A stretch of 62,550 nt of DNA, the filler included, from Collodictyon triciliatum (lineage: Eukaryota): NCBI GenBank assembly GCA_043381765.1. It is 17 parts of 17 records of this genome, joined end to end, with 100 filler letters (N's around TTAATTAATTAA, not from the genome) between each part and the next. Parts side by side here need not be neighbours in the genome. Positions count along the whole stretch, not along the records: positions 38,231 to 41,842 come from JBHJMP010007078.1; 16 more parts are not named here. The stretch is one strand, 5' to 3'. The notes under the pieces were generated by a model. The model was given only the letters and a program-made list of their open reading frames with translations. It did not search any database and was not told where the DNA came from. Of this stretch, positions 144-42,716 are shown piece by piece (position 1 is the stretch's first letter; every line of letters begins with the position of its first letter). The translations under genes and the position numbers were made by a program.

Positions 144-1289
144 TCCTTTTATTTTTGTTTTTGGACAATGAATAAATTATGTATCTGGCTACCAATCCAG
201 GCAAAGTTATATATTACAGATAGCCAAAATATACATTTACTCAAGCAAGAAATTAGTCGGTGCTGTGTGAAAGTTGCGTGGTAATTTTCTACAGAGTAAT
301 TGATTTGAGTGATTATGTTTACTCAGTAACTGGACAGCAGTGTCACACACATAAAAATTAAATAAGAATACAGAGAATTACCTGAATCATACAAACTTGT
401 TTTCCTCCATAATATTTTTTCCCTTTATTCGATTCAAAGTGTTCTTCCATAATCTTAACATATTTGGTGCATGCACAAGGTAACTCGCAAAAAAAAAAAA
501 AGAGGAAAAATTCATGGGTAATGAACCGGATATGAATGGTTTTTTTGAATAAATAAAGGGAACCTACTCCTCGAAAGAATAAATAATGTTTAAACCATGT
601 GGTTTGATAAAACGACCCTTCAAAAAGCTATCTCAAGGCCAGATATGTTCAAGTTCAAGTTAATATATTATTCAAGAGAATCTGAAGCGAATTTGTATAA
701 GCTTACCTCGAGCAGCGGCAAACCGATGAAGAAATAGTATATTAATGTCGTATAAATGCGAATGTTGGAGGATTTGATAAACAAAGACAAAAACATGCTT
801 AGATAGCCATTAACATAATTAATTAAATATTTGGCATTAGTCCTTTTATCAGCATAATCACATACATGTCTCGAGTTATTTCTGCCAACAGTGATTCCAG
901 CCGCACGAAGTTGCTTCAATTTCAGAAAATGCGCGATGCAATAAACTATATCTTTTTTAATATCCATCACCATTTTTCTTGGTTTTCTGGTTCCAAATAC
1001 AGAAAAAATAATATGGGAACATATCTATTGTGAGCCTCTGAGACAAACAAACATGAAAAATCCACAAAATATCCGCTCAAACGATTCTTAAACTTTTCAC
1101 TCAAAAATTGGAGAATGTTTGGGGTATTTTCAGGTTGCATTACTCTGCAGCAATTAGCGTTTCATCACATTCAACACCCGTGACTATTTTCATCCAAAAA
1201 AAAATAAGATAAAGGGCACGTCGGCCAACGCTGGATTCTGATCTGCTCGGAAAAAATGCTGATTCATCTTGGGTTAGATTTGATTCAGT

Positions 1290-2391: not shown

Positions 2392-3489
2392 CTACTAAAT
2401 CTGTGACTCGTACTGAACTTCACTTCCATAAAATAGAATAATGAAAATATCGGCCAACCGGTTCCATCATACTCCTATCATCTTTGGTTAAACCATTAGA
2501 TTGCAATAATTGTATAATAAAATCCCCGTTTCAATATAAAAGTGGTCAAGTGAATTAAAAATGATGACATTTATCGATATACTATGCGTAATATATAATT
2601 CATAATTATTAAAACATAAGCTACATGTAAATTACCATATATGTCCCCAGACAAGTATTCATATTTTCATTGTTGATATTATGCACTACATAGTTCACCC
2701 ACCTATCCTACTAACTATTCAAACCATGCCATATTAGCATTTATGAAAAATATGAAATTCATTCTTCACGATACCATGTATCTAACATCCAATCACCTTG
2801 TTCTTGAAACGAATAAAGGGAAAAAAAAAACAGCAGTCGATTACCCTGCAATATCTTTCATTTTTCTCCATGCAATTCTGTGGATGTCCTAACCAATGAC
2901 ACAAATGAAGGCAAACCAACTCCACTATCTCTTTCCTACCAGCCCTCCTCATCGCACAGAACAAGCTTCGTTGCAAATTCAGCGTGCTCTCTTTCAGCCT
3001 TCTTCGCTGTCCGTATAGACAAGAGTCTTTGTCCTTATAATAGCACCAACATGTATTCGCCATTGTATATTAATGCGCATGCGAGAAGTCCTCCAGCCGT
3101 ATCCAGTCATACTTGCGCGATATTATTATTCATATTGATAACTTGAAAACACGTAAGGTTTTTGGTGCAGGACTTCACCAATACACTAATATTTATCGTA
3201 ATCATAATATTGCTTATATCGCCGCATCGCTTTTTTCCCTTTGCCTTCACTTTTTCCATATATGGTCGCCACCGTTTGTCCCTATAAAAACACCCCGACT
3301 ACCTATACACACAGCACCCTTCTTTCCCGCTTACCCACCCAAAAAAAAAAAGAAAAAAGAATCTGTCCAAACTACCTACCTTGCTCAGGTACCATAACTT
3401 TGGCCCCATCTAATACCCACATAAGGCTCAAAGGCATTACCAAATGGAAAAGGCGCAGGCCGGTCATACCTTTTCTGGCGCCCCTAAAT

Positions 3490-3888: not shown

Positions 3889-5360
3889 AATAAAGAAAAG
3901 GGAGCTTTGGCCACCGGGCGAGGGGAGACAGCCTTCGGCATTGCAGCACACAGGCCCGCACCGCAGACGCGCTCTCCCCTCCCTGTGGCGCATGGCCGTG
4001 CAGGCAGCACGGTAGAGGCAGGCCGGGCAAGCCGGCAGAGGCCAACAGGCAGAGACAGGCAGGAAAGGCTGCTGTGCTCTTGAATCGGCCCTGCTGTGGT
4101 TGCCGCCCTCGCGCCGGGTTGCGGGGGTCTTGTCGTGGTTCATCCGCAATGACCCAGCCCGGCACAATTGCCTGCTCGCGCTTTGTGGTTAGAGCCCCAG
4201 GTTCATTGAGAATTCATTATCGAGCTTCGACATCTTTATTCCGCAACAAGAACCCCATTTCTCATTGCGGGGTGGTGGATGGCGCGGTAGAATGAATCAA
4301 ATGTGGAATACAAATGTGGCGACAATCAATAAATGATCTTTAAGTTAATCCAAAAGAGGAATTTCTTTTGCGTGGAACTATTGGTTTTGTGGTGACGCAT
4401 TGAGTGTGTGGTTTACGAAGCAGCCACTCATCCCGAAACAGCGTCATAACTATAATATAATATAAAACACCATGTTCATACAAAAATGACGAAAATAATC
4501 TATCAATAGACATTAATATGTAAATTTAAAAAATATATTTATATTCCACATATGTAATTTATTCATTTGGATGTTGAAGGCATTCACCTCGTTATCACCA
4601 GGCACCCAGGTTATATAGATGATGGCATCCCAACAAGCGCCCCCGTCTTCACTGATTTTTTTCGGCTTGATTCGATTCAAAGTGTAGTAATCCCGTCTTC
4701 ATTGGTAAAACGCAAAGTCGAAGGCACACTGCCTCTTGTGTGGCCTTCACTTTTCATAATCTCCCCTGTCACCCTCTGTATTCTATTTAGGTGTGAGTGG
4801 CCTTATTTACCAAAGCAACTCTTGCTCACCCCTTGTGGCCTCTGCTGTGTCTGCATTTCAAAACAGCCTCGAACTTCTTTTTTTTCCTTTATTTTTTGCA
4901 TCGTTCATTGTTCGATATGCGCTCACATAATCGATTCAGCGACAGCGATCCGTCAACCTGATGCCCTCTGAGACAATTTATGATATCAAAATCTATCAAA
5001 CTTTCTTCTCTGCCCCAATATCAAGTCTAATAAACCCTACCCCTCCACCCTCGAAGTCCACCGAAATACCCAAACTCTTCTATACCTCTACTCGCCGATG
5101 AAATTTATTTCTCATTGCGTAATACTATCTGCTCCACAAGAATATAAGCTTTTTCTTTGTAAGCTATCTATTTCAAGATTGTTCATCTACTCAACCCCCT
5201 GATACTGTTTCTTACCGCTCTCGTGGACATCCATTAAATCACACCATTTATTACTCAGACTCTGTGAGAAGAGACATATGGAAGGAAGCCGAGAAGGATA
5301 TTAATCCTCGTCATGTCTCCCTCATGCAAGCACAAGACTCAGGATACAGGCCAAAGCGCG

Positions 5361-38230: not shown

Positions 38231-38512
38231 TGCTGAAACACGCCCGCATTCTTCGCTACTCTGACCGCAAGCGAAGAGAGATGTGGGAATGTGTCGTAAG
38301 ATATCTCCCACAGCATATCCAACCCCTGCTACCGACGCAGCCAATCAACCATTTGGGTCGCCCACCTGACCAGCTCGCTATCACTGATTTCTTTCCAGTG
38401 CTAGCCTCTCCACGGTAGTGTCTTCTCTTACTCGCGTTTGCTCTCTCCCATGCGCTCCCATCCCGCCCCTTTGTATGGCATAACCTCGCTGCACTTTGAA
38501 TCGAATAAAGGA
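38231..38512 (+). mobile_element. 3' end of a probable inserted (retro)element: ORF C-terminus with PIP-box, short 3' UTR, terminal CACTTTGAATCGAATAAAGG
   Basis: Open frame LKHARILRYSDRKRREMWE...LGRPPDQLAITDFFPVLASPR* (stop ~38416-38418). GC content drops abruptly after 38512, where it abuts and interrupts the viral minor-capsid frame. Confidence 0.45.
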
Positions 38513-38667
38513 ATATATAGATTATATGGCTTGTTTTCAATAAACAGAAAATCTGATAAATCAAAAGTGAAATTATTGTTTGTCCCACTCACTCGTTTCG
38601 ACTCCGAATTAATAAAAAGATAATTGGCCTCATTTGTATTTCTCTCGTTAAACAGACAGCGTTGCAT
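38512..38667 (-). pseudogene. N-terminus of PLV minor capsid (penton-like single jelly-roll) protein, truncated
   Basis: MQRCLFNERNTNEANYLFINSESKRVSGTNNNFTFDL...KPYNLYI fits the hxI[DN]S..R..GT..NF.F.L start motif of PLV/virophage/NCLDV minor capsid proteins. Lies in the same cluster as MCP and ATPase. Confidence 0.6.
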
Positions 38668-38700
38668 AAATTACCATAGAATTTTTTTCTATATCAAATT
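38668..38700. promoter_or_regulatory. 33-bp bidirectional viral promoter with TCTA at -13 on both strands
   Basis: Plus strand TCTA-TATCAAATT-ATG(38701). Minus strand TCTA-TGGTAATTT-ATG(38667). The two motifs are separated by ATTTTTT. Confidence 0.55.
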
Positions 38701-39079
38701 ATGGAGCAAGATTATGATGAGAATATTGAACTTCCTGTTGCCGTGCCCGAAAAAAAAAGAAAAGAACGCTGACCCCCAAGCAGCTCAAAAAAAGCTCGAA
38801 CTGATGCGGCAGAAAAAGATGGCCAAAAAAAAAGCATCGCAAATGATTGAGGAGTCTGTAAGAAATTCGGTGAGAGACGCAGAGACCGAGGAATTCTCTA
38901 ATCTAAAAAGTGAACTCTCTGAGATAAAAGAAAAATTAAGAAAGAAAACAAAACCCCGGGATATTCCAAAGAAACGAAAAAAAGCTGAATCAGAATCAGA
39001 ATCAGATGAACAAGAACTTGGTACAAGTTACAGACAATCAACAAATCCATACTTGAATCAACTTGTAAGATTTAAATAA
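38701..39079 (+). pseudogene. Small basic/coiled-coil viral protein with two A-run frameshifts
   Basis: Reconstructed MEQDYDENIELPVAVPEKK/KRTLTPKQLK/KLELMRQKKMAKKK...ESESESDE...NPYLNQLVRFK*. ATG 38701 has the same promoter spacing as its neighbours. Confidence 0.55.
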
Positions 39080-39106
39080 TTATTTTTTTATAAAACAATT
39101 ATTTAA
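39072..39106. terminator. AT-rich hairpin (15-bp stem, 1 mismatch, 5-nt loop) overlapping both convergent stop codons
   Basis: TTAAATAATTATTTT-TTTAT-AAAACAATTATTTAA. The arms pair at 14/15 positions, and the mismatch is G-U in the minus-strand (MCP) transcript. Confidence 0.6.
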
Positions 39107-40864
39107 TAAAGAACTTGGGCGTTGTTTTTTCCGACGTCGAGAATACGTGTGTGCTCGATGATGACCCAACAAGTATAGTCATCTACAGGGTTCAATGATG
39201 GAAGATTTGCGGGAACTGGTGCCTCCCCAGCAGCGATTATAACTGAAGCGTGTTTGCAGGACCCGGCAAACTGAAGACCGACCTGCACAATACCACTGAG
39301 TTGCTGTTTGCATTGTATCCCGAAAGCTCAAATTCGTCCGAGTAATCTGAACGGGTCATTGACCACCCCAACGCGAACAGAGTCGGAGTTTTCCAGAATA
39401 TTTCTTCACATTCAATTACATTTGTGTTTTTATCAGTTGATGTATTTGCTGTTAAAATCATATGATTTTGAATGGCTTTGTTGCTGGCATAATTTACACC
39501 TGCGCTTGACCTCGGTAACATCAGTTGAGCTATTCCAGTATTTAGTGCGTCACCGACATTCAATTGAAGTGGTTGAGTAACCTGTTGACCGAAGTTGACC
39601 TGTCCCAGCATCTCAGCACTTATGTTATATCCCAATGCTTTCATTAAATAATTTAGGGCTTCTGGTTGCTTACACAAAGCTTGACCAACTACTGCGCTGG
39701 ATAAAAATCCGGACGCCGCAGCTGCCGTACCAGTAGTATTTTGGCCAGCGGCCGGAACATTTGCATAAGCTGGATTAGCTAATTGAATAGGGACTGATGG
39801 TAGCACTTTACCGTTGACTGTTAGACGGGTTTGTGAAAGCCCCTCAACTTCATGCATACGGTCCGGAACCTAGATATCCAAGATTACTCTATTCACAAGC
39901 TCGGGTAAATATAAGATAAATTGCATTTATATTTGAGTATTGAACAGAAATATCTTGTGTAACCCATCCTGTAGTTCTTCTTGGAATATTAAACTGAGTC
40001 ATAAAATATGTTTCAATTGGAATCTGTAAATTATTATTTATTAAATATTGTGAAAGAGCATTTTTATACGATGGCTCCGTTTGAATGTAGTTTATATTCA
40101 TTTTTAAATTACTTAGAGTATAATTAAGAGTTGTGTTTGTACTATCAGTCCAATACAAAAAGTCTATTACTCCATTACCGGCTCCTAGCGCACCGTAAGT
40201 TATCAAACCATGACTAAAGCACTCTGATGGGGGCGCCATCCAAATACGAATTTCCAATGAACTGGGACCCAGTAAGTAAGCAGGAAGTAAAGTCTTTATA
40301 TTCATTAAGCCAAGATATCTAAGCGGAAATTCAATTTGAACAGTGTTGCTTGTTGTGCCAGCTGCACCAACTAAAAACAATCTGGACCTATCAAAACACT
40401 GACCTAATCCCATTCCACCACTCATAAGATTCACCCAATTCTGATTATTACACCAATTATGTTTAAAAGTTTACAAGATATGAATAGTTGTATATTCGTT
40501 CGAGCTCACTTCCATTGAGATAAACAGCAATGCGATACACAAAAGACTCGTAACTTTCACAAGGAGCTAGAATTGGCAAAGCAGCAGCTCCGCTAATAAC
40601 ACTTCTTTTTAATCTATCCTGAGCAGCAACTGCATCTGCATCTAGTCCTTTTACGGTTAAATCAGCTATAATATGGGCGCTATCCATTTGAATCGGCCAT
40701 TCGTTATCAATTGGAATCCTAAAAACAATTTGAGGACCAGATGAATAAGTTGCTGTCTGCTCCGTTCCATTTGAGGGCAGTACTTGTCTCATTTGCTTTT
40801 CCAAAATAGTTTTCTTTTTTGACGATACATTTCTAAACTATAGCTCCTCCGGTAGTGAATCTAT
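39103..40864 (-). pseudogene. Double jelly-roll major capsid protein of a Polinton-like virus (about 587 codons, disrupted)
   Basis: Four ORF pieces join across 2 TAG stops (40838, 39889), 3 frameshifts (~40465, ~39865, ~39300) and an ATA in place of the start: (M)DSLPEEL*FRN...VLPSNG..Y..GPQIVFRIP...RIAVYLNGSELERIYNY...FPLRYLGL..KTLLP...LEIRIWMA...YTLSNL...LTVNGKVLPSVPI...EALNYLMKAL...FALGWSM...LSGYN...RILDVGKNNAQVLY*. This is the usual PLV MCP motif order. Confidence 0.85.
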
Positions 40865-40886
40865 ATTCTAAAAAAGAAAATAGTTT

Positions 40887-41297
40887 TTAATAACCTATTT
40901 TATTTCGGATATTGTCGTCGTATGATTTTATGACTTTTCCCAGGGATTCGTCCCGCCGTGCAGCTTAGCGAATTACAGGCGCGTATTTTTTCCATTGTTC
41001 AGCGCCTTTTTCAAATGGCTTTTGGAATTTGCTACCTTCGACAAGTTTTGCCATCGTTGTTCCTTTTTTCCCTTCTGCCAAATCCAAGCCTCATTTTACA
41101 TACACTTTATTTGCATTGTACACCTTTAGCGCCTGTTCACTGAGTCCATCCGTGGCAGTACGAGCCAAGTCGCGCAATCCTCCACCTGTGGCTTTATCAA
41201 CGGCATTGACTGCTTTCTCACCGACATTCATCCCCTTCCGTACAAGTTTTACTAGACTTTTTGTGAATCCCCTCAAGCTTCTCCATGTAAATACCAT
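40887..41297 (-). pseudogene. 136-aa viral protein with N-terminal amphipathic helix, two internal stops
   Basis: Single frame MVFTWRSLRGFTKSLVKLVRKG...VYVK*GLDLAEGKKG...YAPVIR*AARRDESLGKVIKSYDDNIRNKIGY*, filling the gap between ATPase and MCP. Confidence 0.7.
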
Positions 41298-41318
41298 ATC
41301 ATTACTTATAAAAAAAAT

Positions 41319-41842
41319 CTAGGTTAGCTCTTCCTCAAAATTTTTAAAATATAGTTGCGGGTTCGAATTACAAACGACATAAAGAAAATTGTATTTTTCC
41401 GCTGTGGCATATTCATAGAACTGCTGGAATTTTTCTTCTGGCAAATCTATAATGTCCTCATAAATGGATTTTACCTCGTTTTTACTTTTGCTTCTGTACA
41501 TTATAAAATGCGTGAAATTTGTCCGGTGGATTCTCTGGAAATATGTAAACTTGTGCGAAATCATAATTATGCTGAGATGCAAGTGCCGCGACTTTAAAAT
41601 TAATTTAGTCAGCTGGGTATGCCGGATGCTTTTCAGCTCATTGGCCAGGTCATCGATTATCAGGAGCGCTCTGAAATCCTCCTTCTCGAAATCCTCGTCA
41701 CCCTCTATATCCTCCTTTATGTAATCTGCTACTTCATTATTTATTGTCTGAAAAACACGCTCGTCTGAAAACTCGATCGAGTCCAGGGATTTATCATAGA
41801 CTTTCCCCTCGTCCGTCACATTCGGTGAGCAGAAATAAATTT
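41319..41842 (-). CDS. A32-like (FtsK-HerA family) genome-packaging ATPase, C-terminal part
   Basis: IYFCSP, Walker B LLIIDD, KSRH arginine-finger motif, IIMISH, IHRTN, YATAEKYNFLYV and YFKNFEE. Walker A lies beyond the contig end. Confidence 0.9.
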
Positions 41843-42326: not shown

Positions 42327-42716
42327 AAAAAAAGAAGAGGGAGATAATGGAAAGCAGGGACAGACTAAAACACTGACGCAAATGCATCCGTATTGCCTTC
42401 TTCGCTGGGTATCGTACCTCACCAGACATGCACGATCGGTTGCTCTACATATTCCCTATCCCCCATTCTGTTTTATTATCTTTCCATTATTCGATTCAAA
42501 GGCTCTATGGTTCATTCTGTTTTTGCTGCTTACCGCCTCGTTGTGGAGTCGACTCGCAAGTCATTCGTCGAAAAGGATACGCACAGTATAGTATTATTTC
42601 TTTTTTTTTTTTAAAAAAAAATCTTAAGAAAAAAGAGAGGAGAAAGAATTATTATTATTATTTTTTAGATAATTCATCTATCAAGAAACCGAAAAATGAA
42701 AAGGAAAACCACCAGC

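Follow-up and report, generated by a model that had tools for sequence, protein, structure and literature searches.

A Polinton-like virus fragment with a broken capsid gene, probably endogenous and decayed, in the Collodictyon triciliatum assembly

The window, that is, the whole stretch of 62,550 nucleotides of Collodictyon triciliatum DNA analysed in this study, is composed of 17 contigs of ~3.6 kb each joined by N44-TTAATTAATTAA-N44 linkers, and one of these contigs carries a virion-gene module of the Polinton-like virus (PLV) type (Table 1). Because the finding is confined to this one contig, the flanking window sequence has no physical linkage to it; no PLV genes were found on the other contigs of the window, which contain long uninterrupted eukaryotic ORFs of 673, 442 and 411 codons in the standard code. 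The viral part comprises 3.3 kb with a GC content of 0.38, versus 0.53 in the flank, and forms a compact intronless module with a double jelly roll (DJR) major capsid protein (MCP), an A32-like packaging ATPase and a penton-like (mCP) gene. All the genes listed in the initial annotation, namely the ATPase, the 136-aa ORF, the MCP in four frames, the convergent basic ORF and the divergent mCP-like ORF, were recovered by tblastn and ORF reading, and its spacers of 21–33 bp measure 21, 22, 23 and 33 bp by coordinates. Its description of a full morphogenesis set is overstated: the ATPase is without its first 67 codons, and the penton-like gene, whose penton identity is a lead, ends after 52.

Table 1. 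Features of the PLV-bearing contig, in window positions.
Feature	Position	Strand	Remarks
PLV-bearing contig	38231-41842		3612 bp; single contig holding the whole finding
Non-viral flank	38231-38511	.	GC 53%; ends with the contig; unlike any PLV locus
18-nt motif CTTTGAATCGAATAAAGG	38494-38511	+	At the extreme end of the flank
Penton-like (mCP) gene, first 52 codons	38512-38667	-	Divergent; cut off at 38512
Lys/Glu-rich ORF	38701-39079	+	Convergent with the MCP; reading frame changes near 38750
AT-rich palindrome between the convergent genes	39071-39110	.	Inverted repeats I1 and I5
MCP gene, double jelly roll, ~587 codons	39103-40864	-	Four tblastn segments in three frames; interrupted at six places
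Conserved 136-codon ORF	40890-41297	-	Between ATPase and MCP; two in-frame stops
Packaging ATPase, C-terminal 173 codons	41322-41840	-	Pfam and tblastn; runs past the contig end

The ATPase fragment corresponds to residues 68–240 of a 240-aa relative at the metagenome locus L005 with 93% identity (tblastn). It matches the Pfam family PF04665 (Pox_A32) with an E value of 9.8e-10 and 38.7 bits (cut-off 22.8), and the full-length L005 protein matches the same family with an E value of 3e-13. The N-terminal 67 codons, including the Walker A part, lie outside the contig, and the part present is free of lesions. The adjoining 136-codon ORF is 75% identical over 142 residues to a 144-aa ORF of L005 (tblastn) and is interrupted by an in-frame TGA at 41091–41093 and a TAA at 40965–40967. 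An ORF occurs in the equivalent position at L001, L002, L005 and L008; no Pfam family was matched by the 136/144-aa ORF, and an Atlas search with the 137-aa ORF gave only scores of 0.81 and no lead.

The intact MCP relatives P0001 and P0002 together span the entire MCP gene by tblastn, with a reported E value of 0.0, in four segments that are 74–89% identical, and segment by segment the window MCP shares 74–88% identity with P0001; judged by sequence comparison, this match is far beyond chance. Aligned with intact relatives, the gene begins with ATA, the ATG start being lost. Two TAG stops, at 40838–40840 and 39889–39891, occupy sites where the relatives have Gln, encoded at both by CAG in the standard code, and position 40840 belongs to a sense codon in metagenome contigs of all four runs. 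Extra bases occur near 40478 (one), 39865 (one) and 39297 (two), of which the first is missing from one run contig, the second is absent in 4/4 relatives and the third in 3/3. As assembled, the contig thus contains a lost start, four nonsense codons, at least four frame changes and one truncation, the sense codons at the nonsense and lost-start sites being judged against L008 and L005 plus two MCP proteins. No Pfam family was matched by the MCP, and its profile hit none of the PDB sequences at E<=10, the Sputnik and mavirus MCP chains included.

Convergent with the MCP, the basic ORF aligns by tblastn with a 170-aa ORF of L002 in two frames, residues 1–19 in frame +3 (38701–38763) and residues 14–168 in frame +1 (38747–39070), and its relatives in three of the four runs have two bases fewer at 38750 and two fewer at 38794. 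It is present and convergent in L001, L002, L004 and L006, and has no Pfam family. The palindrome that separates the two convergent genes could act as a bidirectional terminator. The penton-like fragment corresponds to residues 2–53 of a 292-aa ORF of L002 with 77% identity (tblastn). Its relatives of 291–308 aa matched no Pfam family, and an Atlas feature search with the L002 protein placed viral DUF5901 clusters nearest (0.98) and a Sputnik V18/19 cluster at rank 22 (0.97), a language-model result that gives a lead to a penton identity of the mCP-like gene.

Of 527 candidate proteins, 19 are related to the MCP at E<=0.001; 18 of these are full length (579–632 aa), with 58–85% identity to the middle MCP piece. 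Nine metagenome loci of relatives were collected, and synteny extends to the five with enough flank (L001, L002, L004, L005 and L006), which share the gene order. The contigs that encode the relatives P0005, P0008 and P0010 measure 16–25 kb, and a 736-aa ORF of L005, the one relative in which such a helicase ORF was seen, matches DUF5906 (E 6.2e-16). The family is narrow: a search of 1.84 billion representatives gave 28 clusters at E<=0.001, and 14 when the limit was set at E<=1e-30. In IMG/VR no relative turned up, whether the MCP piece or the MCP alignment served as query. The lineage had been called undescribed; its relatives, annotated as 'hypothetical protein' at most, are already in public data.

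The fold was modelled on the intact relative P0001 rather than on the broken window gene. With a 34-row alignment the model reached a pLDDT of 81.8 and a pTM of 0.85, superseding an earlier MCP model from 18 rows (pLDDT 59.7), and the Foldseek lists from PDB and BFVD consist mostly of DJR capsid proteins. By VIA-align, the model is most similar to the PBCV-1 capsid chain (Z 21.1, 344 aligned, rmsd 3.4), followed by ASFV p72 and the Faustovirus MCP (both 20.1), SGIV (18.8), Sputnik (16.8), mavirus (15.5), and STIV and PRD1 (13.3–13.4). P0001 therefore folds as a DJR, and this fold, together with the A32-like ATPase identified by Pfam, bears out the assignment of the virion genes to the PLV type, whereas the suggestion that the MCP is closer in length to those of virophages was not supported: NCLDV capsid chains score higher than virophage ones (Z 18–21 versus 15–17), and a protein of 616 aa is listed for the known PLV Tetraselmis viridis virus S1.

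At the other side of the penton-like fragment, the viral sequence ends at an exact breakpoint. Homology to PLV loci by blastn begins at 38513, which places the limit of virus homology at 38512/38513, and in the nucleotide alignment the break in the penton-like gene falls within 1 nt of the 18-nt motif. The flank beyond is 281 bp long on the contig and is without recognisable coding sequence; it has no Rfam match at E<=1, and exact matches to a 30-mer from it are absent from IMG/VR and from 185,579 prokaryote genomes. The motif has six matches in the window at <=3 mismatches versus 0.22 expected, a number reached in 0/100 shuffles. The other five copies lie on four other contigs, two of them on the first, and each has an A-rich run after it, whereas inward of the motif the copies do not resemble one another in sequence. 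On the first contig the two copies form a 23-nt inverted pair with no long ORF between them. The motif may be the terminus of a mobile element. It is absent from the loci L001–L009, and L010, the only IMG/VR sequence to match the 18-mer, has nothing else in common with the contig, so that this match was taken as chance. Short contigs similar to the flank occur in all four metagenome runs and continue into other A-rich DNA at 38511–38513, and the window junction was not reproduced in the listed metagenome contigs. Summed over contigs, the depths of flank and PLV part differ across the four runs, but contig depth cannot rank the parts and was given no weight.

Based on these findings, we propose that the contig is probably a fragment of a PLV that resides inside a eukaryotic genome and can no longer make capsids. 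The lesions and the one junction with repeat DNA make endogenous status plausible but unproven. The junction with motif-bearing, GC-rich DNA favours an integrated copy struck by a repeat, and the long intact ORFs on other contigs suggest that the roughly ten lesions within 3.3 kb are not due to assembly error of a general kind. The ancestor would have belonged to a narrow freshwater lineage of small dsDNA viruses, with the order A32-like ATPase, 136–144-aa protein, DJR MCP, convergent basic protein and penton-like protein, a virion module that in relatives adjoins a primase/superfamily-3 helicase gene. The lesions would be real mutations: the capsid gene may have decayed through loss of its start, two TAG stops and three small frame-shifting insertions, the 136-codon ORF could have gained its two stops, and the basic ORF could have become frameshifted. 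A host mobile element, represented by the GC-rich repeat with the 18-nt motif, would have landed in the provirus and cut the penton-like gene after 52 codons, and the assembler presumably stopped within the repeat.

Another reading, possible though rather unlikely, is that one or many intact or near-intact PLVs are integrated and that both the lesions and the short contig are a false consensus of short reads, in which case the element would be endogenous but not decayed. Bellas et al. (2023) describe such a situation for protist endogenous viral elements, with MCP genes on lone short contigs among them: error correction often removed the stops and frameshifts of short-read contigs, which these authors ascribe to a false consensus of many near-identical copies. 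The contig studied here is likewise short, with one end in a repeat and the other inside a gene. The substitution pattern points the same way: dN/dS of the window against the 89%-identical L008 is 0.10–0.25, a low value that also fits the main reading, as most of the divergence would have arisen while the genes were under selection, and the window branch has no non-synonymous excess (25 non-synonymous or stop versus 27 synonymous window-specific changes, against 24 versus 19 for L008; Fisher p 0.54, a weak test as the outgroup is saturated). C>T or G>A changes are not in excess among the window-specific changes (16/52), so that deamination or a RIP-like process is not indicated. However, the four nonsense codons and the lost start are substitutions at sites where the compared relatives have sense codons, and mixing of intact variants should not create them. 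Moreover, in the MCP tree the window read-through, with an X for each break, falls inside a 100/100 clade with P0001–P0004, yet its end branch (0.14) is about twice those of these four nearest relatives (0.057–0.079), and unrelated DNA physically cuts the penton-like gene.

It is quite improbable that the PLV DNA came from a free virus, or from a second organism present in the culture or sample, and was mis-assembled onto a repeat without being integrated. Close relatives are frequent in metagenomes from freshwater, wetland and subsurface sites: parts of the contig sequence occur in sequencing runs in 20 rows from 12 studies, with shares of 0.09–0.18, and subsurface pieces 98–99% identical to the PLV part indicate that the environment contains either a nearly identical virus or this insert itself. 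No run contained even half of the words of the contig sequence (best share 0.18), and no RNA runs were listed among the matches. The junction is also a single one, and is not seen in the listed metagenome contigs. However, six interruptions of the capsid gene would not be expected in a replicating virus, no repeat that could cause a chimeric join is common to the PLV and the flank, and the motif at the flank end is also found on four other window contigs. That the genes are intact under a variant genetic code or with frame-restoring tiny introns is barely credible and was rejected, for although both MCP TAG stops fall where relatives have Gln and a 34-nt GT..AG stretch could bridge the first frame change, the alignments show standard-code CAG at these sites and frame changes of 1, 1 and 2 extra bases rather than introns, a TGA and a TAA also occur and the ATG is lost, and other contigs have 411–673-codon ORFs under the standard code.

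For a decayed integrated PLV, which we still consider the best reading, several observations count on the other side, namely that there is only one junction and the flank is itself a repeat, that the window branch lacks a non-synonymous excess, that the ATPase part is lesion-free, and that near-identical pieces occur in metagenomes.

The contig shares its module of DJR MCP, A32-like ATPase and penton-like gene with PLVs, which a preprint places in the class Aquintoviricetes (Bellas & Sommaruga, 2026), and the lineage is PLV-like also in having a relative with a primase/SF3-helicase type gene and no visible pPolB and in its abundance in freshwater metagenomes. It differs in its narrow MCP family without Pfam or PDB sequence match, and is so far assigned to no named PLV group such as GKS, TVS or PgVV. 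Endogenous PLVs of protists are known (Bellas et al., 2023; Bulzu et al., 2025), and they appear as short contigs in eukaryotic assemblies with apparent stops and mobile elements nearby, as here. Virophages (Sputnik, mavirus) have an MCP of similar length, the DJR fold in common and an A32-like ATPase; however, NCLDV-type capsid chains outscore theirs for the P0001 model, a sequence match to their MCPs is lacking, and their cysteine protease was not seen in the available stretches, which are incomplete. With Maverick/Polinton elements the contig shares the logic of the capsid module and integration in eukaryotic genomes, but pPolB and the retroviral-type integrase, which define those elements, are missing from the contig and were not seen in the 2–5 kb relatives; in their place L005 has a gene for a DUF5906 helicase. 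Retrotransposons reportedly sit inside endogenous mavirus-like elements of the flagellate Cafeteria. These elements offer a parallel in that a host repeat interrupts a small DJR virus after its integration, as proposed here, except that in our case the contig shows just 281 bp of interrupting DNA, in which no coding sequence is recognisable.

Integrated PLVs are already widespread in protist genomes, and one more fragment alone changes little. This one could nevertheless help to identify a host for a small and so far unnamed PLV capsid lineage of fresh water, and offers a clean example for testing real decay versus assembly artefact in such elements. The stronger claim, that the contig provides the first physical link between an orphan, narrow freshwater PLV lineage recorded solely in metagenome contigs and a cellular host, together with a host mobile element that bears an 18-nt terminal motif and inserts into the provirus much like the retrotransposons in Cafeteria, is unlikely as it stands. 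Still, the motif lies exactly against the cut end of the penton-like gene, which gives a lead towards a mobile element landing in proviruses; if PLV copies are repeatedly targeted by this element family, one would have a second example of a transposon specialised on small DJR viruses in integrated form.

The contig under study (38231-41842, 3612 bp) is a real fragment of a polinton-like virus (PLV). The finding is confined to this contig. The window, 62,550 bases in all, consists of 17 similarly sized contigs (each ~3.6 kb) with N44-TTAATTAATTAA-N44 linkers; two more stretches of N, 487 and 533 bases long, lie inside contigs. Adjacency in it therefore has no genomic meaning, and the contig is physically unlinked to the rest. 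The gene set described by the initial annotation, namely an ATPase, a 136-codon ORF, a capsid gene, a basic ORF and a divergent ORF, is present, and the spacers are of 21, 22, 23 and 33 bp as claimed. Pfam Pox_A32 matches the ATPase fragment above the curated cut-off (E 9.8e-10) and a full-length relative at 3e-13, and the AT-rich palindrome at the convergent gene ends may serve as a terminator shared by the capsid gene and the basic ORF. When all other contigs of the window were compared, none showed a PLV protein match; they carry eukaryotic ORFs with WD40, leucine-rich and NHL repeats, a sub-threshold CFAP96-like match and, when read in the standard code, open frames of 411-673 codons. A single scaffolded contig of the window bears a tRNA and four 5S rRNA genes, the latter with identical scores.

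Coordinates of features in the window and, where indicated, in the metagenome loci L005 and L002
Feature	Position	Strand	Remarks
A32-like ATPase, last 173 codons	41322-41840	-	93% identity to residues 68-240 of a 240-aa ORF in L005
136-codon ORF	40890-41297	-	75% identity to the 144-aa ORF at the same position in L005
Capsid gene (MCP)	39103-40864	-	intact relatives of 588-591 aa span its whole length, in four segments and three frames
AT-rich palindrome	39071-39110		exactly between the two stop codons where the capsid gene and the basic ORF converge
Lys/Glu-rich basic ORF	38701-39079	+	convergent with the capsid gene
Penton-like gene, first 52 codons	ends at 38512	-	divergent from the basic ORF; 292 aa in relatives
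Motif CTTTGAATCGAATAAAGG	422-439(-), 2802-2819(+), 4665-4682(-), 16640-16657(+), 38494-38511(+), 42484-42501(-)	both	spread over five contigs; the first has two copies
5S rRNA genes	14911-15029, 17015-17133, 18823-18941, 19458-19576	-	111.3 bits each
tRNA	17727-17800	-	same scaffolded contig as the four 5S rRNA genes
736-aa ORF, L005	3-2210	-	DUF5906 E 6.2e-16, VapE-like more weakly; adjoins the virion module
Gly-rich ORF, L002	3689-4198	+	after the penton-like gene; >170 aa, open at the contig end

The major capsid protein (MCP) belongs to a family that, by sequence comparison, is real but narrow. Of 527 candidates among longer proteins, its middle piece retrieved 19 at E<=0.001; 18 of these are 579-632 aa long and 58-85% identical to that piece, with no name in their sources past 'hypothetical protein'; a profile of these 18 matched 28 of 1.84 billion cluster representatives at E<=0.001, 14 of them at E<=1e-30. 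Neither a Pfam family nor a PDB sequence match was found for the MCP. The protein folded was a natural relative, P0001, in place of the broken gene product of the window, and its model was poor with 18 alignment rows (pLDDT 59.7) and good with 34 (pLDDT 81.8, pTM 0.85). DJR (double jelly roll) capsid proteins predominate in its Foldseek lists (PDB, BFVD), and VIA-align Z scores, taken on Foldseek's best chains, were 21.1 for the PBCV-1 capsid chain (344 aligned, rmsd 3.4), 20.1 each for ASFV p72 and the Faustovirus MCP, 18.8 each for the iridovirus MCP (SGIV) and Vaccinia D13, 16.8 for Sputnik, 15.5 for mavirus, and 13-14 for adenovirus hexon, STIV and PRD1. Together these comparisons of the predicted structure establish the family's fold as a double jelly roll.

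About 200 of the 591 residues of P0001 are unaligned to known capsids, and the variable columns of the family and the low-confidence segments of the model are found for the most part within the second jelly roll (residues 366-500), which fits the long insertions that had been claimed there; in the model these would most simply be surface loops. However, the accompanying claim of an MCP closer to those of virophages is not supported, as the fold ranking gives the virophages Sputnik and mavirus no edge over NCLDV-type capsids such as PBCV-1. Moreover, the PLV Tetraselmis viridis virus S1 has a 616-aa protein of its own in the Foldseek list, and therefore the length of the window MCP is ordinary for a PLV.

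One metagenome contig scan gave nine loci with relatives. In L005 a 736-aa DUF5906 ORF on the other strand is followed by the ATPase, a 144-aa ORF and the MCP, and this ORF probably encodes the primase/SF3 helicase with which the lineage replicates. In L002 the order is a 137-aa ORF, the MCP, the convergent basic ORF, a 292-313-aa penton-like ORF and a Gly-rich ORF; three further loci (L001, L004 and L006) repeat parts of it, and the DNA of L008 is 89% identical to window 40618-41711. No Pfam family was found among the penton-like protein and its ten relatives (291-308 aa), and an Atlas feature search placed viral DUF5901 clusters nearest and a Sputnik V18/19 cluster at rank 22; penton identity of the 292-aa gene is thus a lead. 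The Gly-rich ORF of L002 likewise has no Pfam family; phage-like fibre proteins in PLVs are a topic treated in part of Bulzu et al. (2025). The first bases of L002 (1-100) and L008 (1-30) are unlike virus, with adapter- or primer-like translations, and are probably non-viral. Beyond these loci, 20 runs from 12 studies, mostly freshwater, each hold 9-18% of the sampled words of the contig, and at 80% likeness contigs from four metagenome runs cover nearly all of it, some pieces being 98-99% identical. A subsurface run differs from window 38894-39088 at 3 of 195 bases and from 41538-41754 at 2 of 217, suggesting that this sample contains the same insert or else a virus of almost the same sequence.

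The copy carries many lesions. The capsid gene begins with ATA where L008 and L005 have ATG; its ninth codon is TAG, but CAG in L008 and L005, with a sense codon at 40840 in all four runs; and a second TAG at 39889-39891 is Gln in two relatives. Extra bases occur at 40478 (one, absent from one run's contig), near 39865 (one, absent in 4/4 relatives) and near 39297 (two, absent in 3/3 relatives). The 136-codon ORF has two in-frame stops, TGA and TAA, the basic ORF changes reading frame, and the penton-like gene is broken off at 38512. There is a substantial possibility that the element is endogenous yet undecayed, the lesions being a false consensus of the assembly. Passages of Bellas et al. 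(2023) keep this reading alive: error correction removed many of the stops and frameshifts from EVE contigs of protists, near-identical copies can yield a false consensus with single-nucleotide variants and frameshifts, and lone MCP contigs were poorly assembled parts of larger, often intact insertions. Introns as the cause of the extra bases, and a variant code as that of the stops, were rejected because the relatives have sense codons there under the standard code. Between the window and L008, dN/dS is 0.10-0.25, and therefore selection was acting while most of their divergence accumulated. In the MCP tree, where the window sequence was entered with X at each break, it nests with the relatives P0001-P0004 in a 100/100 clade, on an end branch of 0.14 versus 0.057-0.079 for theirs; a three-way count, of little weight as its outgroup is saturated, gave neither a non-synonymous excess on the window branch (p 0.54) nor a C>T bias.

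At the left end, PLV homology stops at 38512/38513, at most one base from the end of the 18-nt motif. The 281-base flank has 53% GC versus 38% in the PLV part, and it matched neither the PLV loci nor any Rfam family, nor did an exact search with a flank 30-mer match IMG/VR or prokaryote genomes. Six copies of the motif are present in the window, where 0.22 would be expected; each of the other five copies, on four other contigs, is followed by an A-rich run, and the sequence inward of the motif is unlike between copies. The first contig has two copies, which are inverted relative to each other over 23 nt; they lie 2366 nt apart, and the interval contains no long ORF. The motif may be regulatory, or it could form the terminus of elements of one mobile family. 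Flank-like short contigs occur in all four metagenome runs, and those of X1, X2 and X4 continue at 38511-38513 into different, A-rich sequence; the window junction 38511/38512 is reproduced in none of the metagenome contigs listed for the four runs. Retrotransposons within and close to PLV insertions are described in part of Bellas et al. (2023). We infer that the flank would be the terminal part of a repeat of this genome, probably a mobile element, which inserted into the penton-like gene, and that the assembler may have halted inside this repeat.

It is already established, as stated in parts of Bulzu et al. (2025) and of the preprint of Bellas & Sommaruga (2026), that PLVs can be endogenous, that there are PLV groups in freshwater and that their replication modules vary. 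The PLV fragment reported here is probably integrated and decayed, and its lineage is a narrow one, already in public metagenomes without a name.
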